Shown piece after piece: positions 6,901 through 52,988 of a DNA stretch of 64,000 bases. The notes beneath the pieces are model-generated. The model saw only the letters and a program-made list of their open reading frames with translations. It searched no databases and had not been told where the DNA came from. The translations under genes were made by a program, and so were the position numbers. The stretch lies in assembly GCF_054482595.1 (NCBI RefSeq), contig NZ_CM137008.1; one strand, 5' to 3'. Each line of letters opens with the position of its first letter. The stretch's first letter is position 1.

Positions 6901-7045
6901 TAATCACCTGCACATCGGAGAGATCCGGCAGCGCATCCACTGGCGTGTTAATGATGGTCCAGGTGCCCCAGATGCTCAGAAACAACGCGCCCATCAGCAC
7001 CAAAAAACGGTTCGCCACCGAGCGACGAATAATCCATTCAATCAT
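3902..7045 (-). CDS. cusA: Cu(I)/Ag(I) efflux RND (HME) inner-membrane pump
   Basis: 1047-aa ORF recognised as CusA. It is last in the cusCFBA gene order. Confidence 0.97.
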
Positions 7046-7056
7046 TGGTTATTCCC

Positions 7057-8280
7057 TCAATGCGCATTGGTAGCACTTTCAGAGCGCATCCGCTCCAGTG
7101 CGCCAGAAATATTGGCTTCGGAATCAATCAGGAACAGGCCGCTGGAAACCACCTTTTCACCTTCCGCCAGACCAGAGTGTAACGCGGTGACGCCTTGCGA
7201 TGCCTGGAAAACGGCAACGCGTTTCGGTACAAAGCGTCCGTCGGCATCAACGGTAATCACCCGCTGTTCGTTGCCGGTATCAATCAGCGCCTGTGACGGA
7301 ATGAGCAGCATCGGTTCGCTGGCGGTATTGAGTTGCAACCAGGCGTTCATGCCCGGTTTTAGCGCCTCGTCGGCGTTGTCGACTTCCAGACGCAGCTGCA
7401 GCGTGCGGGTCGCGGCATCCACGCCAGGTAGCAGCGTCCATTTGCGGATGGTGAGTGTTTTATCCGGTCGCGCCGGAACGGTGAGGGTAAACTGCGAGGC
7501 ATCTTTCACCAGCCAGGCGATGGACTCCGGGATCGCAGCAGTGACCCACACCGGGTCCATACCCTGAATTTTCGCGACCACGTTATCTTTGGCGATATTC
7601 ATTCCCGCGCGCAGATCAAACGCGGTGATCACGCCATCAATGGGCGCTTTGAGCGTAAAGCGAGTCTGGATTTTTTGCGTGGCGATCAGGCGGCGAATAT
7701 CCGCCTCCGGCATTCCCGCCAGTCGCAGCCGCTCAAGAATGCCTTCAGTCTGGGTCGCCGTACCGCCGGTTTCGCGCAGCAGTAAATACTCAGTCTGCGC
7801 TTCCACCCAGTCAGGAATGGTCAGGTCGAGAAGCGGTGTGCCCTTTTGTACTTTATCGCCCACGGTAAGCGGATACACCTTGTCGATAAACCCGGCAGCG
7901 CGAGCCTGCACAATGGCATACTGATACTCGTTGTAACTGACATTCGCCGGGAAACTCTGGGCAAAAGTCAGCGGTCCGCGCGTGACGGTAGCCGTTTTCA
8001 CCCCCAGATTCTGCGTCTGAGTCGGGTCAATGCGCACACCAGACGCAGAACTCTCTTCATCGGCATATTTCGGCACCAGATCCATATCCATAAACGGCGA
8101 TTTACCTGGTTTATCGAACCGCATATTGGGATACATCGGGTCGTACCAGAATAAGATTTTACGTTCTGCGGTCGACGTTTTTTCTGCAGGCGGTTCCGCC
8201 TTTGCAACCCAGGTAAAACCTGCCGCAGAAATAATACCGCCCGCGATCATGCTGCCGATAATAAGCGCGATTTTTTTCAT
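7057..8280 (-). CDS. cusB: Cu(I)/Ag(I) efflux membrane-fusion (periplasmic adaptor) protein
   Basis: 407-aa ORF with a signal/anchor N-terminus, recognised as CusB. There is an 11-nt gap to cusA. Confidence 0.96.
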   Translation of the reverse strand: MKKIALIIGSMIAGGIISAAGFTWVAKAEPPAEKTSTAERKILFWYDPMYPNMRFDKPGKSPFMDMDLVPKYADEESSASGVRIDPTQTQNLGVKTATVTRGPLTFAQSFPANVSYNEYQYAIVQARAAGFIDKVYPLTVGDKVQKGTPLLDLTIPDWVEAQTEYLLLRETGGTATQTEGILERLRLAGMPEADIRRLIATQKIQTRFTLKAPIDGVITAFDLRAGMNIAKDNVVAKIQGMDPVWVTAAIPESIAWLVKDASQFTLTVPARPDKTLTIRKWTLLPGVDAATRTLQLRLEVDNADEALKPGMNAWLQLNTASEPMLLIPSQALIDTGNEQRVITVDADGRFVPKRVAVFQASQGVTALHSGLAEGEKVVSSGLFLIDSEANISGALERMRSESATNAH

Positions 8281-8295
8281 CTCATTAAACCTGGG

Positions 8296-8628
8296 TTACT
8301 GGCTGACTTTAATATCCTGTAATAAAGAAAGGTTGCCCTGCTGGACAAAATTAAACGCCACTTTGTCGCCGGTTTTAATTTCACTCATTTTCGTCTGCGG
8401 GGTGATGGTAAAGCGCATGGTCATCTCCGGCCAGTTCACAGCAGCAATCGGATCGTGATGGATGGTGATTTTTTTGCTTTCCAGATCAATACCCTTTACC
8501 TCGCCAGTGGCACTAATAACCTGTGGTTGTGCTTCGCTCATGGTTTCATGATGATGTTCGTTAGCCTGGGCATTAAAGCCAATAACGGTAAACAGACTGA
8601 ACATTGCGACTTGCAGTGCTTTTTTCAT
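8296..8628 (-). CDS. cusF: periplasmic Cu(I)/Ag(I) metallochaperone
   Basis: 110-aa ORF with a signal peptide and a His/Met-rich segment (NEHHHETMSEA), recognised as CusF. Confidence 0.96.
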   Translation of the reverse strand: MKKALQVAMFSLFTVIGFNAQANEHHHETMSEAQPQVISATGEVKGIDLESKKITIHHDPIAAVNWPEMTMRFTITPQTKMSEIKTGDKVAFNFVQQGNLSLLQDIKVSQ

Positions 8629-8651
8629 TTATTCTCTCCTGGAGTTAAAAG

Positions 8652-10034
8652 TTATTGCTGCCAACCGCCACCAAGTGCGGTATATAAAGAAATTTCGTTA
8701 ACCTGACGGGCATAATTCAGGTCAAGTAAAGTTTGTCGGGTTGCAAATAACGAACGTTCGGCATCCAGCACTTCCAGATAACTTACTGCGCCGTGCTGAT
8801 ATAATGCCCGCGCCCGTTGCAAAGTAATTTGCAGCGATGCCAGATAACGCTGCTGGGCGCTAATTTGATCGTTCAGGCTTTGACGTAATGCCAGCGCATC
8901 TGCCACTTCTTTAAAGGCGTTCTGGATTTTCTGTTCATAATTCACTACCGACTGCTGCTGGCGAATTTCGGCGATATCCAGATTGGCCTGGTTGCGTCCG
9001 GCATTAAAAATGGGGATCTCAATTTTAGGAATAAAATTCCACATCCCGCTGCTGGCGTTAAATAATGACGACAGATCGCTGCTGGCGGTTGATATTCCGC
9101 TGGTCAGGCTTATAGATGGGAAAAATGCCGCGCGTGCGGCCCCAATATTGGCATTAGCCGCCATTAACGCGTGTTCAGCTTCCATAATATCCGGGCGCTG
9201 CAATAAGATTTGCGACGACAAGCCCGCCGGTAATTTAACGCTTTGCAGGCTGTCGCTGTTTACTGTCTGCGCTTGCGGCAGCTTGCCGTAGCTTCCCAGC
9301 AACAGTTGCAATGCATTATTCGCCTGCGCCAGTTCCCCCTGACGTTTAGCGATGTCGCTGCGGGTACTTTCTATCACCCCGCGAGCCTGTTCCAGCGCCA
9401 GAACATTACTGCTACCTGTCAACAGTTGTTTTTCGACAAACGCATATGACTGCTGATAATTACGCAGCGTTTCTTCAGCTATTTGCAATTGCGCATACGC
9501 CAGTTGCTGATTGAAATAGCTTTGCGCGACATTAGAAACCAGCAGAATATGCACCGCGCGCTGAGCTTCCTCAGTGGCTAAATAATTTTGGCGCTCGGCT
9601 TCGCTCATGTTCTTTAAGCGACCGAAAAAATCGAGGTCAAAGCTGGCGTTAAGGCCGGTCGAAAACTCCCGTGTCGTGGCGGTATTCCCTTTAAGATTAC
9701 CGCTCCAGCTGCCGCTGCCCTCGCCATTGAGCTGTGGGTAGCGGTCGGAATCGGTCAGACGATATTGCGCCCGTGCCTCCTGCACTTTCAGCGTCGCCAT
9801 GCGCAAATCCCGGTTATTCACCAGCGCCTCGCTAATCAGCGTCTTCACCTGATTATCAACAAAAAAGGTGCGCCAGCCCGCGTTCTGATAGTTATCTGCT
9901 GCGTTAACGAGGCCGTTCTGGCTGAGTGAGAACTGCTGCGGTACGGGCATTGCCGGGCGCTGATAATCCGGTGCCAGTGAACAACCGGTTAGCGCAAGGG
10001 CCACACAAAATGGCAGAAGTTTACAAGGAGACAT
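8652..10034 (-). CDS. cusC: outer-membrane factor lipoprotein of the Cus efflux system
   Basis: 460-aa ORF with lipobox LTGC, a TolC/OprM-family sequence recognised as CusC. The exact start may differ by a few codons. Confidence 0.95.
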   Translation of the reverse strand: MSPCKLLPFCVALALTGCSLAPDYQRPAMPVPQQFSLSQNGLVNAADNYQNAGWRTFFVDNQVKTLISEALVNNRDLRMATLKVQEARAQYRLTDSDRYPQLNGEGSGSWSGNLKGNTATTREFSTGLNASFDLDFFGRLKNMSEAERQNYLATEEAQRAVHILLVSNVAQSYFNQQLAYAQLQIAEETLRNYQQSYAFVEKQLLTGSSNVLALEQARGVIESTRSDIAKRQGELAQANNALQLLLGSYGKLPQAQTVNSDSLQSVKLPAGLSSQILLQRPDIMEAEHALMAANANIGAARAAFFPSISLTSGISTASSDLSSLFNASSGMWNFIPKIEIPIFNAGRNQANLDIAEIRQQQSVVNYEQKIQNAFKEVADALALRQSLNDQISAQQRYLASLQITLQRARALYQHGAVSYLEVLDAERSLFATRQTLLDLNYARQVNEISLYTALGGGWQQ

Positions 10035-10103
10035 AGGCTCATAATTTCTGGTGATTTTATACCGCCAACTTTACTCGCCAGGCTCTGATATTCCGGTGAC
10101 AGG

Positions 10104-10125
10104 AAAATGACAAAATTGTCATTTT
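10104..10125. promoter_or_regulatory. CusR box (palindromic response-regulator operator) in the cusC-cusR divergent promoter region
   Basis: Perfect 22-bp palindrome aaaatgacaaaattgtcatttt, matching the published CusR-box form AAAATGACAANNTTGTCATTTT as I recall it. Confidence 0.85.
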
Positions 10126-10190
10126 GCCAATAAGCGATTGCCATCTGATCCCGCTACTCTAGAATTGCCCGGGCAACATGCGGAGGAAAT

Positions 10191-10874
10191 ATGAAACTGT
10201 TGATTGTCGAAGATGAAAAGAAAACCGGAGAATACTTGACCAAAGGGTTAACCGAAGCCGGTTTTGTGGTCGATTTGGCCGACAACGGGCTGAATGGCTA
10301 CCATCTGGCGATGACCGGTGATTATGATCTGATAATCCTCGATATTATGCTGCCGGACGTGAACGGCTGGGATATCGTGCGCATGTTACGCTCCGCCAAT
10401 AAAGGGATGCCGATTCTGTTGCTTACCGCGCTTGGCACCATTGAACATCGCGTCAAGGGGCTGGAGTTGGGGGCAGATGACTACCTGATGAAACCATTCG
10501 CTTTTGCTGAACTGCTGGCGCGGGTGCGCACTCTCCTGCGGCGCGGGGCGGCGGTGATTATCGAAAGTCAGTTTCAGGTTGCCGATCTGATGGTCGATCT
10601 CGTCAGCCGCAAAGTCACCCGCAGCGGCACGCGCATCACTTTGACCAGTAAAGAGTTTACTCTACTGGAGTTTTTTCTCCGCCATCAGGGTGAAGTGCTG
10701 CCCCGCTCGCTTATCGCCTCGCAGGTATGGGACATGAATTTCGACAGCGATACCAACGCTATTGATGTGGCGGTGAAGCGGCTACGCGGCAAAATCGACA
10801 ACGACTTTGAGCCAAAGCTGATTCAAACCGTGCGCGGCGTGGGTTACATGCTTGAGGTGCCGGATGGTCAGTAA
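10191..10874 (+). CDS. cusR: OmpR-family copper/silver response regulator
   Basis: 227-aa [19 protein letters not shown]... with receiver plus winged-helix domains, recognised as CusR. Confidence 0.97.
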
Positions 10875-12306
10875 GCCATTTCAGCGCCCGTTTTCGCTGG
10901 CAACCCGCCTGACCTTTTTTATCAGCCTGGCCACCATCGCGGCGTTTTTCGCCTTTGCATGGATCATGATCCACTCAGTAAAAGTGCATTTTGCCGAGCA
11001 GGATATTAATGATTTAAAAGAAATTAGCGCCACCCTTGAACGGGTACTTAATCATCCTGACGAGACGCAAGCCCGACGCTTAATGACGCTGGAAGATATC
11101 GTCAGTGGTTATTCCAATGTGTTGATTTCCCTGGCAGATAGCCACGGCAAAACGGTGTATCACTCCCCCGGTGCGCCCGATATCCGCGAGTTTACGCGTG
11201 ACGCCATACCCGATAAAGACGCGCGGGGCGGCGAGGTGTATCTCCTTTCCGGCCCGACGATTATGATGCCAGGGCACGGTCACGGGCATATGGAACACAG
11301 CAACTGGCGGATGATTAACTTACCGGTTGGCCCGCTGGTTGACGGCAAACCGATTTATACGCTCTACATCGCGCTTTCGATCGATTTTCATCTTCATTAC
11401 ATAAATGATTTGATGAATAAACTTATTATGACCGCATCGGTAATCAGCATCCTGATTGTCTTTATCGTGCTGTTGGCGGTACATAAAGGTCACGCGCCGA
11501 TCCGCAGCGTCAGCCGTCAAATCCAGAATATCACCTCGAAAGATCTCGACGTTCGCCTTGACCCGCAGACCGTGCCGATTGAGCTGGAGCAGCTGGTACT
11601 GTCGTTCAACCATATGATCGAGCGTATTGAGGATGTCTTTACCCGCCAGTCCAATTTCTCAGCGGATATCGCTCACGAAATTCGCACGCCGATTACCAAT
11701 CTCATCACGCAAACGGAAATCGCCCTCAGCCAGTCTCGCAGCCAGAAGGAGCTGGAAGATGTGCTCTACTCTAATCTCGAAGAGCTGACGCGAATGGCGA
11801 AAATGGTCAGCGATATGCTGTTTCTCGCCCAGGCCGATAACAACCAGTTAATCCCCGAAAAGAAAATGCTCAACCTGGCGGATGAAGTCGGCAAAGTGTT
11901 CGATTTTTTCGAGGCGTTAGCGGAAGATCGCTGCGTGGAGTTGCGATTTGTTGGCGACGAATGTCAGGTTGCGGGCGATCCGCTGATGCTGCGTCGGGCG
12001 TTAAGCAACCTGCTTTCTAATGCCCTACGTTATACGCCACCCAGTGAGGCTATTGTAGTGCGCTGCCAGACGGTCGAGCATCAGGTGCAAGTTATCGTCG
12101 AAAACCCCGGTACTCCCATTGCGCCCGAGCACTTACCGCGTTTGTTTGACCGTTTCTACCGCGTTGATCCTTCCCGCCAACGAAAAGGCGAAGGTAGCGG
12201 CATTGGGCTGGCGATAGTGAAATCGATTGTTGTCGCGCATAAAGGCACGGTTGCGGTTACGTCAAATGCGCGGAGGACAAGGTTTGTTATCACATTACCC
12301 GCTTAA
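10864..12306 (+). CDS. cusS: copper/silver sensor histidine kinase
   Basis: ATG 10864 ([10 protein letters not shown]...) gives 480 aa and overlaps the cusR 3-prime end by 11 nt. It has an H-box [11 protein letters not shown] and a periplasmic His/Met-rich loop. The track ORF starts 4 codons earlier. Confidence 0.95.
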
Positions 12307-22032: not shown

Positions 22033-24642
22033 TTATGAGCCAGAATGTGTGCAAACTGCCGAAATAACAGTGACGGCTTGCTGTAAGCTTTGCTTCGGCA
22101 ATACATAGTGCGCAATGCAGCGTGAGTTCGCGCCGTCTCCCCACTGAACCAGTAATTCACCAGACAATGGCGCACCACTTAAATAAACTTGCCCGTCATC
22201 ACCCACCATACTGGTTATTCCGGTACTGTTTTCCCGTACCAGTGATCCAAACGGCACCGGTTTTCCGCCCTGGGTAACGGTAATGAGCGCCCGCACGCCT
22301 ATGCGGGTATCAAAATTGGCACGAACCAACGCGCCTTGCGTCGGCACAACGCTGCTAATATTTTTTTCAACATCGATGGAATTCCCCATCGTATTGGTAT
22401 CAAGCGCGATACGGTTATACCGATAAACCGTGGCATACGGCATCACCGCATAGCCGCGCCAGTCGGTTAAAATGCCAGTTTGATTTTCAATGCGTACACC
22501 GCCTGCGCCAGGCGCTTTAATCAAAACATTGGTATCCCCTAAAGGCTGGCTCAGCGTTATGCCATTTTCATGCCCGACCACACCGCCAGACAGCTGCCAG
22601 TTAACGTCATGTTGATCGCGGTCGTAGTTATACCCGACCCCCAGCGTACCGTAAGCGGCCTGCCAGTTTGCCGTGGCGCTGCCCGTATACCCATTATTCG
22701 AGGTATCACCCTGGCTTACGTGATAACTCAGGTTGTGGCCTTCCAGTAAGGTCCCACCTACACCTGCCAGCCAGCTATTTTGCCCGTTGCTGTTACGGTT
22801 GGCGTTAAAGGAGGCATAAGCGCGGTCGAGCGCATTTTCCCGGGTGTAGCGACGTTTGGTCAGAACATTGAAAGGCACTGAAACATTAAGTCCGACAATA
22901 CGTTCGTTATCGGGGATCCCTACAGATTCATTCCACGAAAATGAGAGCGAATAACTGATGCCAACCCAGCTGCTGGTATACCCCACCTGATACCACGTAT
23001 CTGAATCCGAAGTATTCCAGTATTTTTGATGGGTACCAGAAATATAAAGCGAGCCAAAGTCATTAAGTGATTGTGAAATATTTAACTGCAAACGGTCTTT
23101 ACGGCTAAAGCGTAAATTGTGGTAATTCACGATTATCGGTTCATCGCGATGCTCACCGTCGTAATCGTAATCATATTCGTACCCCTCCATTCGACGATAC
23201 GCAACATCATCAAGGGTATAAAAACCTTGTGTCGAATAGCGGTAACCCATTAACTGAAAATTGGTGCCGAAGGTGTTCATCGATTTCGCATAGAGGAAGC
23301 GAATAGAATCCCCCTCATGACGACTATCGTCGGCTAACTGACTGCGCGCATGGGTCACATCCAGCGACACTGCCCCCCAGTTCCCGAGGTTGCGCCCCAG
23401 TCCTAATAAAAAGGCGGTGTAATTGGCAGATAATTGCGTCCCGCCGTAGGCAGTAAATTCCTGTGGTAAACCACCGAGTGCCGTGCCCTGAAAAAAGAAA
23501 GGTGATGATTGCTGACTATTACCGCTACGAAAATCGCCCGCCGTCAGGTCAAATTTGAAACGCCCTTCGCGTTGTAAAATCGGCACTGTTGAATACGGAA
23601 TTGTGTAATTCTGCTGATTGCCATCGCGCTCGTCGATGGTGACATCCAGATCGCCATTTGAAGATGTCGGGTGCAAATCTGTAATTTCAAAAGCACCGGG
23701 GGAAACATAGCTTTGATAGATAATAAAACCATTTTGCCGAATCGTTAGCTGGGCCGCCGTACGGGCAATCCCACGTACCGTTGGGGCAAACCCTTGCTGG
23801 CTATCAGGATACATATTATCGGAAGAATAAAGCCGTACACCACGAAATCCAACACCATCGAAAATATCACTTCCTGTATTGCCGTCTCCCATTACCAGTT
23901 CACTTTTCAGCGGAATAATGGCGCGCTGTACCCAGGTGCCAATATTATTCCACTGTTCTGAATGATATCCATTTCCGCGAAAATAGTTCCAGGAACCATT
24001 GTTGCGTAAACGCCACGGGCCAATATTAATCCCGCTGAGCTCACTAAAAAAATAGCTATCGTTACCATTACCTCTGTTACCAGTGAAATTATAATTCAGG
24101 AGTAAAGCAGGAATACCTTCATCCCACTATTCAGGCGGAATGTAACCGTGAGCACTACTCAACAACGCTATCTGAGGAATAGTGATGTTCAGGCGCATCG
24201 CTGCAAAATCAAAGTTAATTGTGGCATCAGGTACAGCTTTCAGTAAATTGATGCATTTATTGTTTTGCTGCTGGGCTAACTCGGGAAATGCACTGCTATT
24301 AAGGCCAATTCGTTCAAGGAGTACCTGGTTAAAACAGGGCATTAACCCACCTGATTTATCACCTGTATTTTCTGTTGTCGATTCAAATACGATATCCTGT
24401 GAACCAATGAACTCATCATTACGCCAGAGATCCACCCGATACACGCCCGCAGGTTGATGATTACCTCTCTCAAAGCGCGATAAATCAGCAACGGATGTGC
24501 CATTCTCTAATAAAAATGCCGGGTTGAAATAACTTTCCGCATAGCTTAAAAAGGAGGGTAAAATGGCAAGAGATGAATAACAAATTCCGGCCAGACACCA
24601 GGTATACCTCTGCGGAATATCCGTAGTAGTGGGTATTTTCAT
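22033..24642 (-). pseudogene. sfmD: sfmD fimbrial outer-membrane usher interrupted by one in-frame TAG at 24127-24129
   Basis: Track ORFs 24127..24642 and 22033..23892 are in the same frame (the offset of 750 is 3x250). My translation of 23893..24126 is open ([27 protein letters not shown]...KSELV). The total is about 868 codons, the size of a FimD-family usher. Confidence 0.9.
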
Positions 24643-31748: not shown

Positions 31749-32812
31749 AACAGGTTTGCGTCCTCGGTAACGGGCAGTTAGGCCGTATGCTGCGTCAGGC
31801 AGGCGAACCGTTAGGCATTGCTGTCTGGCCGGTCGGGCTGGACGCTGAACCGGCGGCGGTGCCTTTTCAACAAAGCGTGATTACCGCTGAGATCGAACGC
31901 TGGCCGGAAACCGCATTAACCCGCGAGCTGGCGCGCCATCCGGCCTTTGTGAACCGCGATGTGTTCCCGATTATTGCTGACCGTCTGACTCAGAAGCAGC
32001 TTTTCGATAAGCTCCACCTGCCGACCGCACCGTGGCAGTTACTTGCCGATCGCAGCGAGTGGCCTGCGGTGTTTGATCGTTTAGGTGAGCTGGCGATTGT
32101 TAAGCGTCGCACTGGTGGCTATGACGGACGCGGTCAATGGCGTTTACGCGCCGATGAAACCGAACAGTTACCGGCTGAATGCTACGGCGAATGTATAGTC
32201 GAGCAGGGCATAAACTTCTCTGGTGAAGTGTCGCTGGTTGGCGCGCGCGGTTTTGATGGCAGCACCGTGTTTTATCCGCTGACGCATAACCTGCATCAGG
32301 ACGGTATTTTGCGCACCAGCGTCGCTTTTCCGCAGGCCAATGCGCAGCAGCAAGCGCAAGCCGAAGAGATGCTGTCGGCGATTATGCAGGAGCTGGGCTA
32401 TGTGGGCGTGATGGCGATGGAGTGTTTTGTCACCCCGCAAGGTCTGCTGATCAACGAACTGGCACCGCGTGTGCATAACAGCGGTCACTGGACACAAAAC
32501 GGTGCCAGCATCAGCCAGTTTGAGCTACATCTGCGGGCGATTACCGATCTGCCGTTACCGCAACCAGTGGTGAATAATCCGTCGGTGATGATCAATCTGA
32601 TTGGTAGCGATGTGAATTATGACTGGCTGAAACTGCCGCTGGTGCATCTGCACTGGTACGACAAAGAAGTCCGTCCGGGCCGTAAAGTGGGGCATCTGAA
32701 TTTGACCGACAGCGACACATCGCGTCTGTCCGCGACGCTGGAAGCCTTGATCCCGCTGCTGCCGCCGGAATATGCCAGCGGCGTGATGTGGGCGCAGAGT
32801 AAGTTCAGTTAA
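31745..32812 (+). CDS. purK: N5-carboxyaminoimidazole ribonucleotide synthase
   Basis: 355-aa ATP-grasp ORF with an ATGA overlap onto the purE stop. Confidence 0.96.
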
Positions 32813-32830
32813 CCTGGTGCTCATTTGATT

Positions 32831-32942
32831 GCCGGATGCGGCGTGAACGCCTTATCCGGCCTACACCGATCCGGTACCCATTGTAGGCCTGATAAGACGC
32901 GTCAAGCGTCGCATCAGGCATGGTACGCCGATTGCCGGATGC
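32831..32942. repeat. REP/BIME cluster (two full inverted REP units plus a partial third)
   Basis: gccggatgcggcgtgaacgccttatccggcctac (32831-32864), inverted copy gtaggcctgataagacgcgtcaagcgtcgcatcaggca (32883-32920), and partial tgccggatgc (32933-32942). It lies between convergent purK and ybcF. Confidence 0.85.
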
Positions 32943-32950
32943 TCTCATCA

Positions 32951-33844
32951 CTACAGCGAAATACAGGTCCCCGCTTCGCCCGCCAGCGTCTCTTCAATTC
33001 GCGATAACGCCCCAATCCACGCGGGTTTACCACGGCTTCTGACATAACCACTCACCGCCGTTACCTTCGGCCCCATCGAACCATCGGCTTTGGCAAATGG
33101 CGCTAACTCATCCGGTGTGGCATGGCGAATGGCACGTTGCTGCGGCGTTCCCCAGTTTTCATATACCGCATCAGCATCGGTGAGGATCACCAGTCCATCG
33201 GCATTAATCTGCTCGGCGAGCAACGCAGCAGCGAGATCTTTATCAATCACCGCTTCACTCCCTGCCCCGTCTTCCGTCACAGGCACACCGCCGCCGCCAC
33301 TGCAAATCACCACATGCCCCTCTTTGAGCAACAACTCGATGGCTTCGCTGTCGAGAATTTTACGCGGTTGCGGAGACGCCACCACCCGGCGTAAATATTT
33401 ACCATCACGTTTCATCTGCCAGCCGTAAGCCGCTTCCAGTGCCTCTTGTTCTTCTGGCTGATAAACCGGACCAATAAATTTCTCTGGCTGCAAAAACGCC
33501 GGATCATCAGGCGAAACCTCAATGCGCGTCAGCACCGTCGTGACAGGCGGCATCTGCGGCTGTGCGCTCAAACTTTGCGCCAGCATATAGCCAATCATCC
33601 CCTGACTTTCCGCCACCAGCACATCCAGCGGATACGGTTCTACCTCTTTCCACGCCAGATTCTGCAATGCCAGCAGCCCCACCTGCGGCCCGTTGCCGTG
33701 AACAATCGCCAGCCGATAAGAACGGGCCAGCCGTGCCAGCGCGGGTACAGCACTGGCGATATTGCGATATTGATTTTCTGCCGTCAGCGCCTCACCGCGC
33801 TGAAGCAAGGCATTGCCCCCAAGAGCTACAACCAGTGTTTTCAT
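32951..33844 (-). CDS. ybcF: carbamate kinase-like protein
   Basis: 297-aa [21 protein letters not shown]..., amino-acid-kinase fold. It is the last gene of the fdrA cluster. Confidence 0.92.
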
Positions 33845-34656
33845 GGTTTTCCTTGTAATAATTGTTGGCCAAGCCAGAACCCCAGCAGCGTATCTGCCCC
33901 TGACGTATGCCCCAGCGCCAGCAGCGAATCAATCGCAACAGCGGTACGTTTCGGGCAACTCAGAGCATGAGCAAAGTGCAGGAGTGGCGAGGCGAAATAT
34001 CCTTGCGCGGCATAACGTAAATAACTGACGCTCACCGCTGTGGTAACGAGTTGAAGATTGTCGGAACAGGCAAAAAACGGGCGACCGGCGCGCGCATGTA
34101 AAGCACCATAATACCAGGCCGCCAGCAGCATTCCGCTCAACGTGTCATCATGACTTGGCGTTAATCCGGGGCCTTTACCCAGCCAGTGCCGCCAGTCGGT
34201 CTTAACGCCATTGAGCGCGGCCTGAAAACAGTGACGAAACTGGCGTAATTCAGCGGGCAGCGGATCGCTTGCCGCCATCGCCAGTGGCCCGAAAAGTCCG
34301 GTTTCCTCCGCGCGTTGCATCCATGCAGCTGCAAGCGGTTGAGGATGCGAAGGCGGCGTAATACGCAGCAAACAATAACGCTGTGGCTGTGTAACCGTGA
34401 AACGCCCGAGGCGAATCCCTTGAGCCACAACCTGTGGTCGTTCATTGCCGCATAATCCACCGCATAACGCATCGAATTGCGCACGGCGAAGCACCCATCC
34501 TCCGGGGCCGAAACCACTACCCTGACGATGCAGCGTTAACAGTTCGCCGCTTTCCGTCATCAGGTTAATCGCCCGCCGCCACACTCCCGCTAACCGCCAG
34601 GACTGGCGATAATTCGGTGCGCTACTACTGGCAAGCAGAGGATGGATGATCGTCAT
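33841..34656 (-). CDS. ylbF: DUF2877-family protein
   Basis: ATG 34656 ([17 protein letters not shown]...) gives 271 aa, with a 4-nt overlap onto the ybcF start. The track ORF extends 41 codons upstream into ylbE. Confidence 0.85.
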
Positions 34657-34666
34657 TGCGCGTTCC

Positions 34667-35926
34667 TCAACCAATCCCCATGCTTTCAGCCAGTGCTTCC
34701 AGCGCCTGTTCAAAACACGCCAGCGGTGCCCGCACGGTGCCTGCGCCAATCTGCCCGATCCCCGCCTCTTTATGGGCAATACCGGTATTGATGAGTGGCG
34801 TAATGCCGGTTTCTACCACGCGACGAATGTCCAGCCCCAGGCACGCGCCCTGAAAATCCCAGCTTGGGATCTGCAACTGCATATTGCGTTCAAGGTAAAT
34901 TTCCGCCATCTCTTCAGATACCGCCCTGGCCGCTTCCATGCCACCCGCACCGACAAAGCGCGTTACGCCAGGCGCTGCGATCATTGCCGCACCTCCGATA
35001 CCAAAGGTTTCGGTAATCGCGCTATCGCCCATATCCGGGTTCGCCTGCTCCTGCGAGAAGCCGGTGAAAAACAGACCTTGCGGAGTGTTTACAGGCGCAG
35101 TAAACCAGCGTTCGCCCAGCCCGCTTACCCGAATCCCGAACATATTACCGTTGCGGGTCATTGCCGTGACGATGCTGCCTGCGCGGATCATCGCGCCAGC
35201 ATCCATCGCCGCCTTGCAGTAAGCCATCGCGAGGTTGAGGAAGAACTGATCGGTCACGCTGAGGAAATCCATCACTTCCGCGATGTGCTGTTTATCATGA
35301 TCGAGGCGAGCAATTTGTGGGGCCAGCGCACGCATTAACAGTGCTGAGGAAGCAATATTGCGTTGATGGAACTCATCGCCCATCGTAATGCCCTGCGCCA
35401 TCATCGCGGTAAGATCGATACCGCGCTCCATGCGCCCCAGCGCCGCGCTTAATACTGGCATTAACACATCGCGCATCCAGCGATGGCGAGTCAGGACATC
35501 TTCGCCGTAAGCGCCAAAACGCATCACTTTGCCGATACCTTCGTTGAGGTTGCAGTACGCCCGGTTGCCGTCGGTCACGTTCTCGACCACCAGCATCGGC
35601 ATACTGGCAGAAGTAATACCGCCCATTGGCCCGACGGCATTCACATGGTGACAAGGAATGAAGTTCACTTCCCCCTGCTCCAGTATTGCCAGCGCCTGCG
35701 CTTCATCTTTCGCCCAACCTTCGAACAGACATGCGCCCACGCACGCCCCTTTCATGGGTCCGGTCATCTCCTGCCAGCGCATTGGCGGCCCGGCGTGAAG
35801 CAGTGTTTTGCCCTGGTTTAGTTCGCTGATAAGTGAAGAAGCCGGTTGCACATCCAGCCAGTGTGGACGAGCGCGACGAATTTGTTCGATAACCGCAGCA
35901 TTGGCTTGCGCCACTGATGTAAACAT
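34667..35926 (-). CDS. ylbE: DUF1116-family protein, intact
   Basis: Uninterrupted 419-aa ORF. It lies 9 nt after the fdrA stop and 10 nt before the ylbF start. Confidence 0.88.
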
Positions 35927-35935
35927 GGGAACCCC

Positions 35936-37603
35936 TTATTGCAAACGTTCTAATAAACGAGCCAGTTTTTTATTGCCGCCGGCGACTGGCGACCATTGGT
36001 AATGCACAACCGGTTTGCTGGCGCTTTGTAGCTCCAGCGCAAAACTGCGTAATCCGATGTTAATCACGGCGACGTTTTCCAGTAATGACGGTGTGTGTTG
36101 CTGTGCGGCAGGCGAGAGCGGATGAATTAACGCTGCCGCCAGCAAGGTGGCTTCCGGTAGCGAACTCACGACCGCAATCCCCGCATCTTCCAGCGTGGCG
36201 ATTTGCTGCGAGCGGCATTGCGGGTCACGTTCGGTACCTGTCACCGTGGCAATGGCGTACAGCGGTTGGCTGTCTGAACGCGCGGCACAGGCTTTTTGCC
36301 AGGCGCTCACCAGCGAGGCGGCAGGATCGGCGGTCGCGCCGAAGCCAATCACGACATCAAGTAGCAATACGCGCACTGACAGTTTAGCGCCGAGATCGGC
36401 AATTAACTGGTTGCGTAAGGTTGGGTCGATCATCGGATGGGGACGCCCGACGGTGTAGAAATCATCGCCAAGGTCAATAATCTGGTGACCATCGGCGTCG
36501 AGCATCATGCCGTGATGATGGGCATCATCGGCTTCCACGCCAAGGTGTCCGGCAAGTAATCCCGCCGCTTCGGCAGCCAGCGTACCGCCGGTATACAAAC
36601 CGCAAATAAATCCGCTGCTGACAGGTGCTATTGCGTTACGTCGCGCCGTGACGCGTGAAAGCAGGCAAGCCAGGCGTGCGGCCTCATCCAGCGAGGAGGC
36701 AAACCAGACATTCTCGTCGCGGGCCACCGCCGGGGTATAACCTAAAAACAGCGCCACCGTCGGTTTGCCGGTTGCTTTCATGGCATTAACAATTTTCAGA
36801 CGCACCGCTTCGGCAGGTGGTTTTGAAACAAATGCCAGCACTTCGCTTTTCTCGTCTGCACTGAGCATTTCCAGCGCCGTCAGCGCACTGATGCCGCCCA
36901 CTTCACGGCTGAGGTCGCGGCCGCCAAGGCCAATCGCGTGAGTAATTCCCTCCCCTGCCAGCGCAATCTGCGAGCACAGCTCCTGAATCCCGGTACCGGA
37001 AGCGCCAATGACGCCAATATTGCCTTCCGGCATCACGTTAGCAAAAGCCAGCGGCGTGGCGGCAATCATCGACGTACCGCAGTCCGGCCCCATCACCAGC
37101 AAGCCTTTTTCTCGCGCGCGGGTTTTAAGTTGGATTTCATCTTCCAGCGTGACGTTATCGGAGAACATCATCACGTTGAGGTTGCGATCCAGCGCCTGAT
37201 TCGCCAGCTCCGCCGCATACTCGCCAGCCACTGAAATCAGCGCCAGATTGGCATCGGGTAATTTCTGACAGGCACTGTCCCAGCGACGCACCTGCGTCAA
37301 GGACTGGCTGCTGCCTGCCCCCTGCGCCAGTTGTTTTAGCGCCTCTTCAAGCTGCTGCATAATCGCCTGCGCGATCCCCGCATCCGCCGCTTCGCTACGA
37401 ATTGCCACGCAAATATCGTTCGGCGTGGCGTTATTAAAATCGTCATGCCAGAAACCTGTGGTATCTAATAACGCTTTATTGGCGGGCGTACCCATCATTA
37501 CGGAAACATCATCAACATTTTCTGATTCGCTGAGTTTTCGTGAAATAATCATTAAACTGACCGAATCCTGAAAACACCCTTTTTTAATAAAGGCGTGGAT
37601 CAT
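35936..37603 (-). CDS. fdrA: acyl-CoA synthetase / succinyl-CoA ligase alpha-like protein FdrA
   Basis: 555-aa ORF MIHAFIKKGCFQDSVSLM... with CoA-ligase-like Gly-rich segments, recognised as FdrA. Confidence 0.92.
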   Translation of the reverse strand: MIHAFIKKGCFQDSVSLMIISRKLSESENVDDVSVMMGTPANKALLDTTGFWHDDFNNATPNDICVAIRSEAADAGIAQAIMQQLEEALKQLAQGAGSSQSLTQVRRWDSACQKLPDANLALISVAGEYAAELANQALDRNLNVMMFSDNVTLEDEIQLKTRAREKGLLVMGPDCGTSMIAATPLAFANVMPEGNIGVIGASGTGIQELCSQIALAGEGITHAIGLGGRDLSREVGGISALTALEMLSADEKSEVLAFVSKPPAEAVRLKIVNAMKATGKPTVALFLGYTPAVARDENVWFASSLDEAARLACLLSRVTARRNAIAPVSSGFICGLYTGGTLAAEAAGLLAGHLGVEADDAHHHGMMLDADGHQIIDLGDDFYTVGRPHPMIDPTLRNQLIADLGAKLSVRVLLLDVVIGFGATADPAASLVSAWQKACAARSDSQPLYAIATVTGTERDPQCRSQQIATLEDAGIAVVSSLPEATLLAAALIHPLSPAAQQHTPSLLENVAVINIGLRSFALELQSASKPVVHYQWSPVAGGNKKLARLLERLQ

Positions 37604-37919
37604 AACAACTCCTTAAAAATTGCACCCATGGCAATTGCACGAGCAGTGTTAATGTGGCGATTACGGTATCGATGACAACGGGTAAATAAGGTGATGAATA
37701 TCACACAGGGATTATTAACAAAAGAATTCAAATAACCGCCATGCTATTACGTGTTATTTTTTAATAAGCGTGGTTGTTTTAAAAACCAGGTTAAAAGCGA
37801 GCGGATTATCAAATAAATTCTAACTATATTTTTTTGCCTGTCTGGATCACATAATCCAGATATTTTCCCTGTATGTTAATTGCAGTCATGCTTCACACCG
37901 TCGTTAAAAAGGAAGACAG

Positions 37920-38969
37920 ATGAAAATCAGTCGGGAAACACTCCACCAGCTAATTGAGAATAAACTCTGCCAGGCTGGGTTAAAACGTGAGCACGCTGCA
38001 ACCGTGGCTGAAGTATTGGTTTACGCCGATGCCAGAGGGATCCACTCTCATGGCGCGGTGCGCGTGGAATACTACGCGGAACGCATTTCAAAAGGCGGCA
38101 CCAACCGCGAACCGGAGTTTCGTCTTGAGGAAACCGGGCCGTGCTCGGCAATTTTACATGCCGACAATGCCGCCGGACAGGTCGCGGCGAAAATGGGTAT
38201 GGAACATGCCATCAAAACCGCCCAGCAAAATGGCGTTGCGGTGGTCGGTATCAGCCGGATGGGTCACAGCGGCGCAATCTCTTATTTTGTGCAGCAGGCA
38301 GCCCGCGCCGGATTAATTGGCATTTCGATGTGTCAGTCCGATCCAATGGTGGTGCCGTTTGGCGGCGCGGAAATTTACTACGGTACTAACCCACTGGCCT
38401 TTGCCGCGCCGGGAGAAGGCGACGAGATCCTTACCTTTGATATGGCGACTACCGTACAGGCATGGGGAAAAGTGCTCGACGCCCGCTCGCGTAATATGTC
38501 TATCCCGGATACCTGGGCGGTCGATAAAAACGGTGCACCAACAACCGATCCGTTCGCGGTACATGCTCTGCTCCCCGCAGCCGGGCCGAAAGGGTATGGC
38601 CTGATGATGATGATTGACGTCCTCTCAGGCGTCTTACTCGGCTTACCGTTCGGGCGACAGGTTAGTTCGATGTATGACGATTTACACGCCGGGCGTAATT
38701 TGGGGCAATTACATGTAGTTATTAACCCGAACTTTTTCTCCTCCAGCGAATTATTCCGTCAACATCTTAGCCAGACCATGCGCGAATTAAATGCCATTAC
38801 CCCCGCGCCCGGTTTTAATCAGGTTTATTATCCCGGACAGGATCAGGATATTAAACAACGCCAAGCCGCCGTCGAAGGCATCGAAATTGTTGATGATATT
38901 TACCAGTATTTAATTTCCGACGCGCTTTATAACACGTCATACGAAACGAAAAATCCCTTTGCGCAATAA
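37920..38969 (+). CDS. allD: ureidoglycolate dehydrogenase
   Basis: 349-aa ORF of the Ldh_2 (malate/L-lactate dehydrogenase type 2) family, recognised as AllD. Confidence 0.95.
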   Translation: MKISRETLHQLIENKLCQAGLKREHAATVAEVLVYADARGIHSHGAVRVEYYAERISKGGTNREPEFRLEETGPCSAILHADNAAGQVAAKMGMEHAIKTAQQNGVAVVGISRMGHSGAISYFVQQAARAGLIGISMCQSDPMVVPFGGAEIYYGTNPLAFAAPGEGDEILTFDMATTVQAWGKVLDARSRNMSIPDTWAVDKNGAPTTDPFAVHALLPAAGPKGYGLMMMIDVLSGVLLGLPFGRQVSSMYDDLHAGRNLGQLHVVINPNFFSSSELFRQHLSQTMRELNAITPAPGFNQVYYPGQDQDIKQRQAAVEGIEIVDDIYQYLISDALYNTSYETKNPFAQ

Positions 38970-38990
38970 TTATTGAGACAGGACTTTCTT

Positions 38991-40226
38991 ATGATTACAC
39001 ATTTTCGTCAAGCCATAGAAGAAGCGCTGCCCTGGCTTTCCTCTTTTGGCGCTGACCCAGCGGGTGGGATGACCCGTTTACTTTATTCGCCGGAATGGCT
39101 GGAAACCCAGCAGCAATTTAAAAAAAGAATGGCCGCAAGTGGGCTGGAAACACGTTTCGATGAAGTGGGGAATTTATACGGTCGCCTGAGTGGCACCGAA
39201 TATCCACAGGAAGTGATTCTGAGCGGTTCGCATATCGATACCGTGGTTAACGGCGGTAACCTCGACGGGCAATTCGGCGCGCTGGCGGCGTGGCTGGCAA
39301 TTGACTGGCTGAAAACTCAATACGGCGCACCGCTGCGTACGGTTGAAGTGGTGGCGATGGCGGAAGAAGAAGGCAGCCGCTTCCCGTATGTTTTCTGGGG
39401 CAGTAAAAATATCTTTGGGCTGGCGAATCCTGACGACGTGCGGAATATCTGTGATGCCAAAGGAAATAGTTTTGTCGATGCGATGAAGGCTTGCGGATTT
39501 ACTCTGCCGGACGCCCCGCTAACTCCGCGTCAGGATATTAAAGCCTTTGTCGAACTGCATATCGAACAGGGCTGTGTGCTGGAAAGTAATGGGCAATCAA
39601 TTGGCGTGGTGAATGCAATTGTCGGGCAACGTCGCTATACGGTGACGCTGAACGGCGAATCAAACCATGCAGGCACCACGCCGATGGGTTATCGTCGTGA
39701 TACGGTTTACGCTTTCAGTCGCATTTGCCATCAGTCGATCGAAAAAGCGAAAAAGATGGGCGACCCGCTGGTGCTGACCTTTGGTAAGGTGGAGCCGCGC
39801 CCGAATACGGTGAATGTGGTGCCGGGTAAAACCACATTCACCATTGATTGTCGTCATACCGACGCCGCCGTGCTGCGCGATTTCACTCAGCAGTTAGAAA
39901 ACGACATGCGGGCGATTTGCGATGAAATGGACATTGGTATTGATATCAATTTATGGATGGACGAAGAACCCGTGCCGATGAATAAGGACCTGGTCGCCAC
40001 CCTGACAGAATTGTGTGAAAGTGAAAAACTGAATTACCGGGTGATGCACAGTGGTGCCGGGCACGACGCGCAGATTTTCGCGCCTCACGTGCCGACCTGC
40101 ATGATTTTCATTCCCAGCATCAACGGGATCAGCCATAACCCGGCGGAACGCACCAATATTACCGACCTTGCCGAAGGGGTCAAAACGTTGGCACTCATGC
40201 TTTATCAACTTGCCTGGCAGAAATAA
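38991..40226 (+). CDS. allC: allantoate amidohydrolase (M20 peptidase family)
   Basis: ATG 38991 (MITHFRQAIEE...) gives 411 aa. The track ORF begins 6 codons earlier at TTG. Confidence 0.95.
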   Translation: MITHFRQAIEEALPWLSSFGADPAGGMTRLLYSPEWLETQQQFKKRMAASGLETRFDEVGNLYGRLSGTEYPQEVILSGSHIDTVVNGGNLDGQFGALAAWLAIDWLKTQYGAPLRTVEVVAMAEEEGSRFPYVFWGSKNIFGLANPDDVRNICDAKGNSFVDAMKACGFTLPDAPLTPRQDIKAFVELHIEQGCVLESNGQSIGVVNAIVGQRRYTVTLNGESNHAGTTPMGYRRDTVYAFSRICHQSIEKAKKMGDPLVLTFGKVEPRPNTVNVVPGKTTFTIDCRHTDAAVLRDFTQQLENDMRAICDEMDIGIDINLWMDEEPVPMNKDLVATLTELCESEKLNYRVMHSGAGHDAQIFAPHVPTCMIFIPSINGISHNPAERTNITDLAEGVKTLALMLYQLAWQK

Positions 40227-40236
40227 GGAGTCATAA

Positions 40237-41022
40237 ATGGGATATTTAAATAACGTCACCGGTTACCGCGATGATTTACTGGCTAACCGTGCGATTGTGA
40301 AACACGGTAATTTCGCACTGTTAACACCAGACGGTCTGGTAAAAAATATTATTCCGGGCTTTGAAAATTGTGACGCGACAATCCTCTCTACGCCAAAGCT
40401 GGGTGCCTCTTTTGTTGATTATCTGGTCACACTGCATCAAAACGGTGGCAACCAACAGGGCTTCGGTGGCGAAGGCATTGAAACGTTCCTGTATGTGATC
40501 TCTGGAAATATCACTGCCAAAGCCGAAGGCAAAACATTTGCCTTAAGCGAAGGTGGCTATCTTTATTGCCCGCCAGGCTCCTTAATGACGTTTGTTAACG
40601 CCCAGGCCAAAGACAGCCAAATCTTTTTATATAAGCGCCGCTATGTTCCGGTAGAAGGCCATGCACCGTGGCTGGTTTCTGGCAATGCCAGCGAACTGGA
40701 ACGCATTCATTATGAAGGCATGGATGATGTGATCCTGCTGGATTTTCTGCCCAAAGAGTTAGGTTTTGATATGAACATGCATATCCTCTCTTTTGCACCA
40801 GGTGCCAGCCATGGTTATATCGAAACACACGTTCAGGAACACGGTGCCTATATTCTTTCCGGTCAGGGGGTTTATAACCTCGACAATAACTGGATCCCGG
40901 TGAAAAAAGGCGATTACATCTTTATGGGCGCTTATTCTTTACAGGCTGGTTATGGCGTAGGGCGTGGTGAAGCGTTCAGCTATATTTACTCGAAAGATTG
41001 CAACCGCGACGTAGAGATTTAA
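40237..41022 (+). CDS. allE: (S)-ureidoglycine aminohydrolase (bicupin)
   Basis: 261-aa ORF MGYLNNVTGYRDDLLANR..., recognised as YlbA/AllE. Confidence 0.93.
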   Translation: MGYLNNVTGYRDDLLANRAIVKHGNFALLTPDGLVKNIIPGFENCDATILSTPKLGASFVDYLVTLHQNGGNQQGFGGEGIETFLYVISGNITAKAEGKTFALSEGGYLYCPPGSLMTFVNAQAKDSQIFLYKRRYVPVEGHAPWLVSGNASELERIHYEGMDDVILLDFLPKELGFDMNMHILSFAPGASHGYIETHVQEHGAYILSGQGVYNLDNNWIPVKKGDYIFMGAYSLQAGYGVGRGEAFSYIYSKDCNRDVEI

Positions 41023-52061: not shown

Positions 52062-52988
52062 ATGTTCGATCCAGAAACCTTGCGGACTTTCATTGCGGTT
52101 GCTGAAACAGGAAGTTTTTCAAAAGCGGCAGAACGATTATGTAAAACCACGGCGACGATCAGTTATCGCATTAAACTTCTGGAAGAGAATACCGGAGTAG
52201 CGCTGTTTTTCCGTACGACTCGCAGCGTGACGTTGACAGCGGCTGGCGAGCATCTACTTTCCCAGGCCAGAGACTGGCTGAGCTGGCTGGAAAGTATGCC
52301 AAGCGAGCTGCAACAGGTGAATGATGGCGTGGAACGCCAGGTGAATATTGTCATCAACAACCTGCTCTACACCCCCCAGGCCGTCGCCCAGTTGCTGGCG
52401 TGGCTGAATGAACGTTACCCCTTTACCCAGTTTCACATCTCCCGACAAATCTATATGGGCGTCTGGGACTCGCTATTGTACGAAGGTTTTGCGCTGGCTA
52501 TCGGCGTCACGGGAACTGAGGCGCTGGCAAATACCTTTAGTCTTGATCCCTTAGGATCGGTGCAATGGCGATTTGTCATGGCGGCGGATCATCCGCTGGC
52601 GAACGTTGAAGAGCCGCTAACAGAAGCGCAGTTGCGGCGCTTTCCGGCGGTCAATATTGAAGACAGCGCCCGCACCTTAACCAAACGCGTCGCCTGGCGA
52701 TTGCCAGGGCAAAAAGAGATTATTGTTCCCGATATGGAAACGAAAATCGCCGCCCATCTGGCGGGCGTTGGCATTGGTTTTTTGCCAAAATCACTTTGCC
52801 AGTCAATGATCGATAATCAACAACTGGTCAGCCGGGTAATCCCAACGATGCGCCCTCCTTCGCCATTGAGTCTGGCATGGCGCAAATTTGGCAGCGGCAA
52901 AGCGGTAGAAGATATTGTGACCTTGTTTACCCAGCGCAGGCCGGAAATCAGCGGATTTTTAGAAATTTTCGGCAACCCACGCAGTTAA
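52062..52988 (+). CDS. allS: LysR-family activator of allD
   Basis: 308-aa ORF with an N-terminal LTTR HTH ([33 protein letters not shown]). Confidence 0.95.

Follow-up and report, generated by a model that had tools for sequence, protein, structure and literature searches.

Intact fdrA-ylbE-ylbF-ybcF genes in an Escherichia coli chromosome very probably constitute the allFGHK operon for ATP formation from oxalurate

INTRODUCTION

Do fdrA, ylbE, ylbF, and ybcF, four tightly packed genes, provide an Escherichia coli strain with the last steps of anaerobic allantoin use, in which ATP would be gained from oxalurate? This question is raised by positions 32951 to 37603 of a 64,000-nucleotide stretch of DNA (contig NZ_CM137008.1 of RefSeq assembly GCF_054482595.1), termed the window in the following. 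A preliminary description, made from the sequence of the window, had put the module forward as a candidate for the missing oxamate carbamoyltransferase plus carbamate kinase route. Our analysis leaves little doubt that the module is the allFGHK oxalurate-to-ATP operon, which comprises the oxamic transcarbamylase AllFGH (EC 2.1.3.5) and the carbamate kinase AllK (EC 2.7.2.2). The feature represents this already characterized operon in its normal, intact state and adds nothing new on the locus. Two observations, the loss of the phosphohistidine loop from AllF and a contrast with K-12 at residue 260 of AllK, go beyond the literature; they constitute leads for experiments and not discoveries about the window.

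RESULTS

The module corresponds to the K-12 allFGHK genes

The window was identified as E. coli DNA. A 5.2-kb stretch comprising the module was 100% identical in several complete chromosomes (XH990, Santai, and others), in which the gene labels given by RefSeq are fdrA, ylbE, ylbF, and ybcF, and of 5426 complete E. coli genomes, 5407 contained at least 80% of this stretch. According to the MG1655 coordinates, the allFGHK genes of K-12 (b0518, b4572/b0519, b0520, and b0521) share the order, the lengths, the gaps, the overlap, and the position divergent from allDCE. The encoded proteins are of the same lengths in both strains, and the residues identical to K-12 amount to 545/555 for AllF (98%), 418/419 for AllG (99.8%), 265/271 for AllH (98%), and 295/297 for AllK (99%), which corresponds to 10, 1, 6, and 2 amino-acid differences, respectively. 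The differences from K-12 include a lysine at position 260 of AllK (Asn260 in K-12), 10 single-nucleotide polymorphisms (SNPs) in the promoter region, and one repetitive extragenic palindromic (REP) unit fewer downstream.

Four minus-strand open reading frames (ORFs) of 555, 419, 271, and 297 amino acids (aa) were obtained from the ORF list and by direct reading of the sequence. They were assigned to allF (fdrA; positions 35936 to 37603; ATG start), encoding an oxamic transcarbamylase subunit; allG (ylbE; 34667 to 35926; ATG start and no internal stop), encoding the DUF1116/AllG subunit; allH (ylbF; 33841 to 34656), encoding the DUF2877/AllH subunit; and allK (ybcF; 32951 to 33844), encoding a catabolic carbamate kinase. 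For allH, the mechanical ORF list gives a TTG start at 34779; we adopted the ATG that yields 271 aa, in agreement with RefSeq and with the N termini of 22 homologues. The TAA of fdrA is followed by GGGGTTCCC (9 nt) and the ATG of ylbE, the TGA of ylbE is followed by GGAACGCGCA (10 nt) and the ATG of ylbF, and the sequence ATGA is common to the ylbF stop and the ybcF start, resulting in a 4-nt overlap. Direct reading thus confirmed the tight packing claimed in the preliminary description. Its domain assignments were recovered as well: CoA_binding and Ligase_CoA for FdrA, PF06545 (DUF1116) for YlbE, PF11392 (DUF2877) for YlbF, and AA_kinase/carbamate kinase for YbcF. A Shine-Dalgarno-like sequence (AAGGAG, AAGGGG, GAGGAA, or AAGGAA) is located 5 to 8 nt 5′ of each of the four starts. 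The tight spacing and the presence of a ribosome-binding site for each start suggest that the genes would be expressed from one translationally coupled transcript.

The function of the K-12 orthologues has been demonstrated

The experiments on the K-12 orthologues were published between 2021 and 2025. Reverse transcription-PCR revealed that fdrA-ylbE-ylbF-ybcF form a single four-gene transcript (PMC9843812, Kim & Kim 2022). In the same study, purified YbcF produced ATP from carbamoyl phosphate and ADP with Km values of 0.47 and 0.43 mM, and ybcF was renamed allK (PMC9843812). Single deletions of fdrA or ylbE abolished oxamate formation, and deletion of ylbF reduced it to 1.2 mM, compared to 17.7 mM in the wild type (PMC11326118). 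Oxamate was also abolished in an allFGH triple deletion strain and was fully restored only with all three genes, while allGH without allF restored 16%; wild-type cells converted approximately 90% of the allantoin to oxamate (PMC11326118). Copurified His-AllF/AllG/AllH-His displayed oxamic transcarbamylase activity, since oxalurate was formed from oxamate and carbamoyl phosphate as judged by high-performance liquid chromatography, liquid chromatography-mass spectrometry, and nuclear magnetic resonance (PMC11326118, Kim & Kim 2024). The Km values were 1.3 mM for carbamoyl phosphate and 36.9 mM for oxamate, with a pH optimum of 9; the assay required 10 mM Mg2+ and contained neither CoA nor a nucleotide (PMC11326118). 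The allF promoter was induced approximately 38-fold by allantoin under anaerobiosis and is activated by AllS and ArcA (PMC12535856, Kim & Kim 2025). An allF'-'lacZ fusion reached approximately 4000 Miller units only in the presence of both anaerobiosis and allantoin, and this signal was lost in allS and arcA deletion strains; in electrophoretic mobility shift assays (EMSA), AllS bound a fragment from −203 to −144 and phosphorylated ArcA (ArcA-P) a fragment from −142 to −83 (PMC12535856).

The proposed combination of oxamate carbamoyltransferase and carbamate kinase, yielding ATP from oxalurate, has thus been shown for orthologues with 98 to 99.8% identity (PMC11326118, PMC9843812), and the status of a candidate or missing activity, which the preliminary description had given to the module, is outdated. 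Its statement that the biochemistry of the DUF subunits is poorly defined holds for the mechanism and the stoichiometry but not for the activity, which was demonstrated in 2024. The coexpression assay, the deletion mutants, and the AlphaFold-multimer prediction that it had suggested as checks have all been published; the published AlphaFold attempt gave no hetero-complex. From the degree of identity, the strain from which the window originates would be expected to share with K-12 the enzyme activities, the need for three genes, the cotranscription, and the dependence on AllS and ArcA.

In the proposed pathway, AllD, encoded by the divergent allDCE operon, would oxidize ureidoglycolate to oxalurate, and AllFGH would convert oxalurate and phosphate reversibly to oxamate and carbamoyl phosphate. 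Oxamate would be a dead end and be excreted, while AllK would pass the phosphate on to ADP, giving ATP and carbamate, the latter decaying to NH3 and CO2. The transcript would originate from the allD-allF intergenic region and would be driven by AllS as the allantoin signal and by ArcA-P under anaerobiosis.

AllF resembles succinyl-CoA synthetase but apparently lacks the phosphohistidine loop

AllF matched the NCBIfam model NF004760 (FdrA) with 1039 bits (cut-off, 433) over residues 1 to 555 of 555, and its Pfam domains CoA_binding and Ligase_CoA cover residues 193 to 287 and 336 to 491, respectively. The Protein Data Bank (PDB) entry 3DMY covers residues 82 to 555. A profile of 20 FdrA homologues was aligned by hhalign to SucD and SucC of E. 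coli, the two subunits of succinyl-CoA synthetase (SCS). FdrA residues 116 to 293 aligned with SucD residues 64 to 241 with a probability of 96.8%, and the alignment stopped directly before the SucD sequence GKRMGHAGA, which contains the phosphohistidine loop (GHAG). FdrA resumes with ...ARDENVWFASSLDEAARL, which was matched by eye to SucD ...AGVKTVRSLADIGEAL; approximately 26 residues, including the catalytic histidine, therefore appear to be missing from AllF. No invariant histidine was found in alignment columns 289 to 300 among the 20 FdrA homologues. The sequence A201-S-G-T-G205 is invariant in these homologues and aligns with the phosphate-helix motif SRSGT of SucD. Asp296 (codon at 36716 to 36718 of the window) sits exactly at the deletion junction. 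The exchange D296Y, which was selected in a published evolution experiment, speeds oxamate production, and deletion of fdrA abolishes oxamate (PMC8550087, 2021).

An ATP-grasp domain was not detected by Pfam in any of the four operon products. The FdrA-family profile did not match SucC (hhalign probability, 0.3%), and it is therefore only the Pfam hit that suggests that the second Ligase_CoA domain of AllF keeps the phosphate helix of the β subunit. A comparison of the C-terminal half of FdrA with solved structures (E values up to 10) returned only 3DMY and chance matches, with no residue-level alignment to the SCS β subunit. By these alignments, AllF is an SCS-α-like scaffold without the phosphohistidine loop. 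The missing loop argues that AllF is not an acyl-CoA synthetase, despite the RefSeq product name "acyl-CoA synthetase FdrA."

This name, which is also used by NCBIfam, together with the Pfam domains CoA_binding and Ligase_CoA and the reasoning of the CanOE study of 2012 (PMC3364942), favors an alternative proposed in that study: FdrA could be a true acyl-CoA synthetase, such as an oxamate:CoA or oxalate:CoA ligase through which oxamate is removed, while YlbF and/or YlbE alone would act as the carbamoyltransferase. We consider this very unlikely. SCS-type ligases need the phosphohistidine loop that the FdrA family does not possess, the operon offers no ATP-grasp partner, and deletion of fdrA stops the production of oxamate and not its consumption. 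Furthermore, allGH alone restore no more than the 16% of oxamate given above, and the three-protein preparation is active without CoA or ATP (PMC11326118).

For AllFGH as an oxamic transcarbamylase, the FdrA/SucD alignment, the invariant ASGTG motif, the loss of the loop, and the position of D296 at the junction led us to infer, by analogy, that the enzyme uses the chemistry of SCS "site I." AllF would perform the first SCS half-reaction only, in which phosphate attacks an acyl-X bond and an acyl phosphate is formed. Here, X would be the amide nitrogen of oxamate in place of the sulfur of CoA, so that the leaving group would be oxamate and not CoA. AllG and AllH would complete the oxalurate site, and the phosphohistidine/ATP-grasp relay of SCS would have its counterpart in AllK.

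AllG and AllH belong to families of oxamate carbamoyltransferase subunits

AllG scored 326.7 bits with PF06545 (gathering threshold, 27) and AllH 100.1 bits with PF11392 (gathering threshold, 25); Pfam now names these families "Oxamate carbamoyltransferase subunit" AllG and AllH, respectively. The carbamoyl-phosphate-binding and Asp/Orn-binding domains of ornithine and aspartate transcarbamylases (OTCase and ATCase) were not matched by any of the three subunits in Pfam. The sole close relative of AllG among solved structures is the uncharacterized 3CLQ, the YlbE homologue of E. faecalis V583, and no close solved-structure relative was found for AllH. AllH contains one invariant motif of 12 residues and the invariant motif GHTSGAD, and none of its six differences from K-12 falls into invariant columns. 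The idea that GHTSGAD could represent a ribokinase-like "GxGD" anion hole was dropped, as a fold search gave no support. Several database entries merge neighboring genes of the operon, namely P0089 and P0111 (AllG plus AllH domains) and P0015 and P0020 (AllH plus carbamate kinase). These entries are most likely frameshift or read-through calls over the 10-nt gap and the 4-nt overlap and not real fusions.

The gene arrangement is conserved across phyla

One genome per species was scanned for YlbE relatives, and the 80 best loci were compared with the window proteins by tblastn. FdrA was encoded directly upstream of YlbE in 75 of these loci, and YlbF was detectable in 66. A carbamate kinase was present in 75 loci and directly downstream in 50, while AllD, AllC, and AllE were all encoded in 42. 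Loci with all (allantoin) genes include those of Vibrio/Photobacterium (Vibrionaceae), Gilliamella (Orbaceae), and Paenibacillus. The arrangement of FdrA-YlbE with a carbamate kinase is far beyond chance. AllG is strikingly conserved and still 64 to 69% identical in Firmicutes (Paenibacillus and Ornithinibacillus). AllH evolves fast: its identity is 68% in Citrobacter (compared to 94% for AllG) and 30 to 40% within the Enterobacterales, beyond which it was undetectable by tblastn.

A paralogous island without allantoin genes in its vicinity was observed between fbaA and mscS. In Citrobacter amalonaticus (locus L047, positions 4842 to 12096), it comprises genes for a divergent carbamate kinase, an MFS transporter, FdrA-, YlbE-, and YlbF-like proteins, and a LysR regulator. 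This layout is repeated in further loci from Citrobacter and Enterobacter (L033 to L035, L040, L043, L045, L050, L051, L059, and L061). The identities to the window proteins are 61 to 65% for the FdrA-like, 74 to 77% for the YlbE-like, and 32 to 39% for the YlbF-like proteins. The island may handle an imported ureido compound.

Its existence in Citrobacter and Enterobacter without all genes demonstrates an ability of the module to function in other settings, which would fit a second alternative, in which the enzyme would be a ureido-phosphorylase of broader range that acts physiologically on an N-carbamoyl compound other than oxalurate, with the oxamate activity as a side reaction. That only the reverse reaction was assayed, with a Km of 36.9 mM for oxamate, points in the same direction. 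We regard this alternative as no more probable than the acyl-CoA synthetase discussed above: the wild type turns approximately 90% of the allantoin into oxamate while the mutants produce none, the operon is induced approximately 38-fold by allantoin under anaerobiosis via AllS, and linkage to allD, allC, and allE is found in 42 of the 80 species loci, across phyla.

E. coli normally carries an intact ylbE

The preliminary description had contrasted the ylbE of the window with a frameshifted pseudogene in MG1655. The continuous 419-codon ORF was confirmed here; however, the contrast no longer applies. In the current MG1655 reference NC_000913.3, ylbE b4572 (548357 to 549616) is annotated as an intact 1260-bp, 419-aa coding sequence, and the intactness of ylbE is therefore not a distinguishing feature of the window. 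Resequenced stocks differ from the earlier MG1655 reference by 547,694 A>G and 547,831 +G, changes that turn the pseudogene into an ORF (PMC5460176), and another K-12 strain carries the intact ancestral ylbE (PMC3045373). The authors of the CanOE study of 2012 saw no such frameshift in any other E. coli and considered a sequencing error the probable cause (PMC3364942). An intact 419-aa ylbE is the norm in essentially all E. coli, and the MG1655 pseudogene is an artifact of the old reference version. A third alternative, that the genes are functionless remnants in the window strain or that the role of fdrA is multicopy suppression of a dominant-negative ftsH, can draw on the historical gene name and the old pseudogene listing but is hardly credible, given four full-length ORFs with the invariant family residues kept, a ylbE that is intact in the current MG1655 too, the presence of the module in 5407 of 5426 genomes, and a suppressor phenotype that results from overexpression and bears no relation to the conserved gene context.

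AllK carries the conserved lysine that is replaced in K-12

AllK matched the NCBIfam equivalog NF006926 with 621 bits (cut-off, 416) and TIGR00746 with 427 bits (cut-off, 358), both over the full length. Its alignments with the solved carbamate kinases 8crv, 1e19, and 2e9y extended over the whole length, and the one with 1b7b covered residues 2 to 284. The nucleotide/phosphate-binding residues were assessed by means of the Lys-Asp pair (K209/D210 in efCK) and the lysine of GSMxPK (K271 in efCK). In the alignment with the four solved enzymes, both are present in the AllK of the window, within IDKD (K202/D203) and GSMGPK (K260). Lys260 aligns with Lys271 of efCK, Lys277 of the P. furiosus enzyme, and Lys278 of the Giardia enzyme, and a lysine occupies this position in all four of the solved carbamate kinases that were aligned. 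The conserved lysine is salt-bridged to the β-phosphate of ADP in solved structures, with the residue roles being described for the Giardia carbamate kinase (PMC3659122). A literature search for "carbamate kinase" and "Lys277" returned nothing; for the function of this residue, we relied on PMC3659122 instead.

Codon 260 of allK (33065 to 33067, minus strand) is AAG in the window, encoding the lysine of GSMGPKV, and AAT (Asn) in the K-12 lineage, including MG1655. The K-12 allele (N260) thus does not possess the lysine of GSMxPK. A lysine was found at this position in 75 of 76 carbamate kinases of the species loci, and the sole asparagine belonged to a K-12-like E. coli. An exact 30-mer with the Lys codon was detected in at least 3783 of 5426 genomes and the version with the Asn codon in at least 357 of 5426; the two counts add up to less than 5426 and are lower bounds and not frequencies, since nearby synonymous SNPs break the 28-nt seed. 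Within the Asn260 set, all 40 top-listed records and all 60 records of an evenly spread sample appear to be laboratory derivatives of K-12, as indicated by strain name, stated source, and genome size. Lys260 of the window is the ancestral allele, while Asn260 is a change specific to the K-12 lineage.

For the published AllK kinetics, the ASKA clone JW0510 in MG1655 had been used (PMC9843812). The reported Vmax of YbcF was approximately 1.8 U/mg, and deletion of ybcF left the lysate's carbamate kinase activity unchanged and caused no phenotype (PMC9843812). We are evenly divided on whether the K260N exchange renders the K-12 AllK a hypomorph, which would explain the low Vmax, the unchanged lysate activity, and the absence of a deletion phenotype, with the Lys260 enzyme being the more active and physiologically relevant one. 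The published results are consistent with a hypomorphic N260 allele but are not proof. If the allele is a true hypomorph, AllK enzymology may have been misled.

Control region, operon end, and neighboring genes

The divergent control region of allD and allF (37604 to 37919) comprises 316 bp, with a GC content down to 0.47. The fragments used for EMSA in K-12 (PMC12535856) were mapped via the MG1655 alignment, which placed the AllS fragment (−203 to −144) at 37747 to 37806 and the ArcA-P fragment (−142 to −83) at 37686 to 37745. The region is identical to MG1655 at 306 of 316 positions. Six of the differences lie in the AllS fragment, including a 3-nt block (CAC here and TGA in K-12), and three lie in the ArcA fragment. 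A scan of positions 32700 to 38000 for sigma-70 promoters and terminators yielded fewer sites than shuffled sequences and no canonical intrinsic terminator; owing to the result with the shuffles, the scan is uninformative on the promoter and the operon end. An Rfam search of the same positions gave no match. The terminator scan reported a near-perfect palindrome, TGTCTGGATCACATAATCCAGATA, at 37839 to 37862, approximately 60 to 80 bp upstream of the allD start, which looks more like a candidate regulator binding site for the allD promoter than like a terminator.

The spacer between allK and purK (32813 to 32950) contains palindromic units of the REP/bacterial interspersed mosaic element (BIME) type, with the direct repeat GATTGCCGGATGC at 32827 and 32930. 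It comprises 138 nt here, compared to 194 nt in MG1655, where an additional unit is present and the spacer is 56 nt longer. It represents the probable 3′ boundary of the operon.

The allD-allC-allE operon (37920 to 41022, plus strand; taken from the ORFs and the RefSeq annotation of XH990) is divergent and would supply oxalurate via the ureidoglycolate dehydrogenase AllD. Its first gene starts at 37920, at a distance of 316 bp from fdrA; allC and allE come next. According to coordinates mapped from the XH990 annotation, the ORFs of glxK, ybbY, allB, allW, glxR, hyi, gcl, allR, allA, and allS are uninterrupted between 41250 and 52988, with an intact allS at 52062 to 52988. A location divergent from allDCE and inside the allantoin regulon, as the preliminary description had stated, was thereby verified. 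Elsewhere in the window, the fimbrial usher gene sfmD (22033 to 24642, minus strand) is broken up into two ORFs (619 and 171 aa). The split fits the pseudogene annotation with an "internal stop" in the record of XH990, which is 100% identical to the window at positions 32800 to 38000.

DISCUSSION

The module of the window very probably represents the allFGHK operon, which closes the anaerobic allantoin pathway. It constitutes the sole route for urease-negative enterobacteria to recover the last ureido nitrogen and to gain ATP from it. Several points weigh against this assignment or against parts of it. The function in the window strain is transferred from the K-12 proteins by their 98 to 99.8% identity. 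The enzymology of AllFGH was run in the reverse direction only, oxalurate being unavailable, and the Km for oxamate was high (36.9 mM; PMC11326118). The copurification via tags on two subunits does not establish the stoichiometry of AllFGH or even a stable three-subunit complex. The SCS-style mechanism is an analogy, and for the C-terminal Ligase_CoA domain of FdrA, no residue-level alignment with SucC was obtained. Finally, regulation could differ quantitatively from that in K-12, as the AllS and ArcA EMSA fragments contain 9 of the 10 differences in the intergenic region.

The comparison with the superfamily of SCS and NDP-forming acyl-CoA synthetases, represented here by SucD, reveals both likeness and difference. 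AllF has kept the SGT phosphate-helix motif and has a second Ligase_CoA domain (336 to 491). In contrast to SCS, AllF lacks the phosphohistidine loop, no ATP-grasp subunit is present, and the published assay required neither CoA nor a nucleotide. A different protein of E. coli, YgeW, was once predicted to be the oxamic transcarbamylase. It adopts the fold of classical transcarbamylases, shares no sequence relationship with AllF, AllG, or AllH, and was inactive toward oxamate-related compounds (PMC11326118).

Oxamic transcarbamylase activity was described for Streptococcus allantoicus in the biochemistry of the 1960s, and this Gram-positive enzyme was never assigned genes. The YlbE homologue of E. 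faecalis V583 was deposited as an "uncharacterized protein" (3CLQ). The closest parallel in design is provided by arcB-arcC of the arginine deiminase pathway, in which a ureido compound is likewise phosphorolysed to carbamoyl phosphate and a carbamate kinase encoded in the same operon forms ATP by substrate-level phosphorylation. However, while the arcB product is a single-gene trimer with the ATCase/OTCase fold, AllFGH is a transcarbamylase made up of three proteins that are unrelated to this family.

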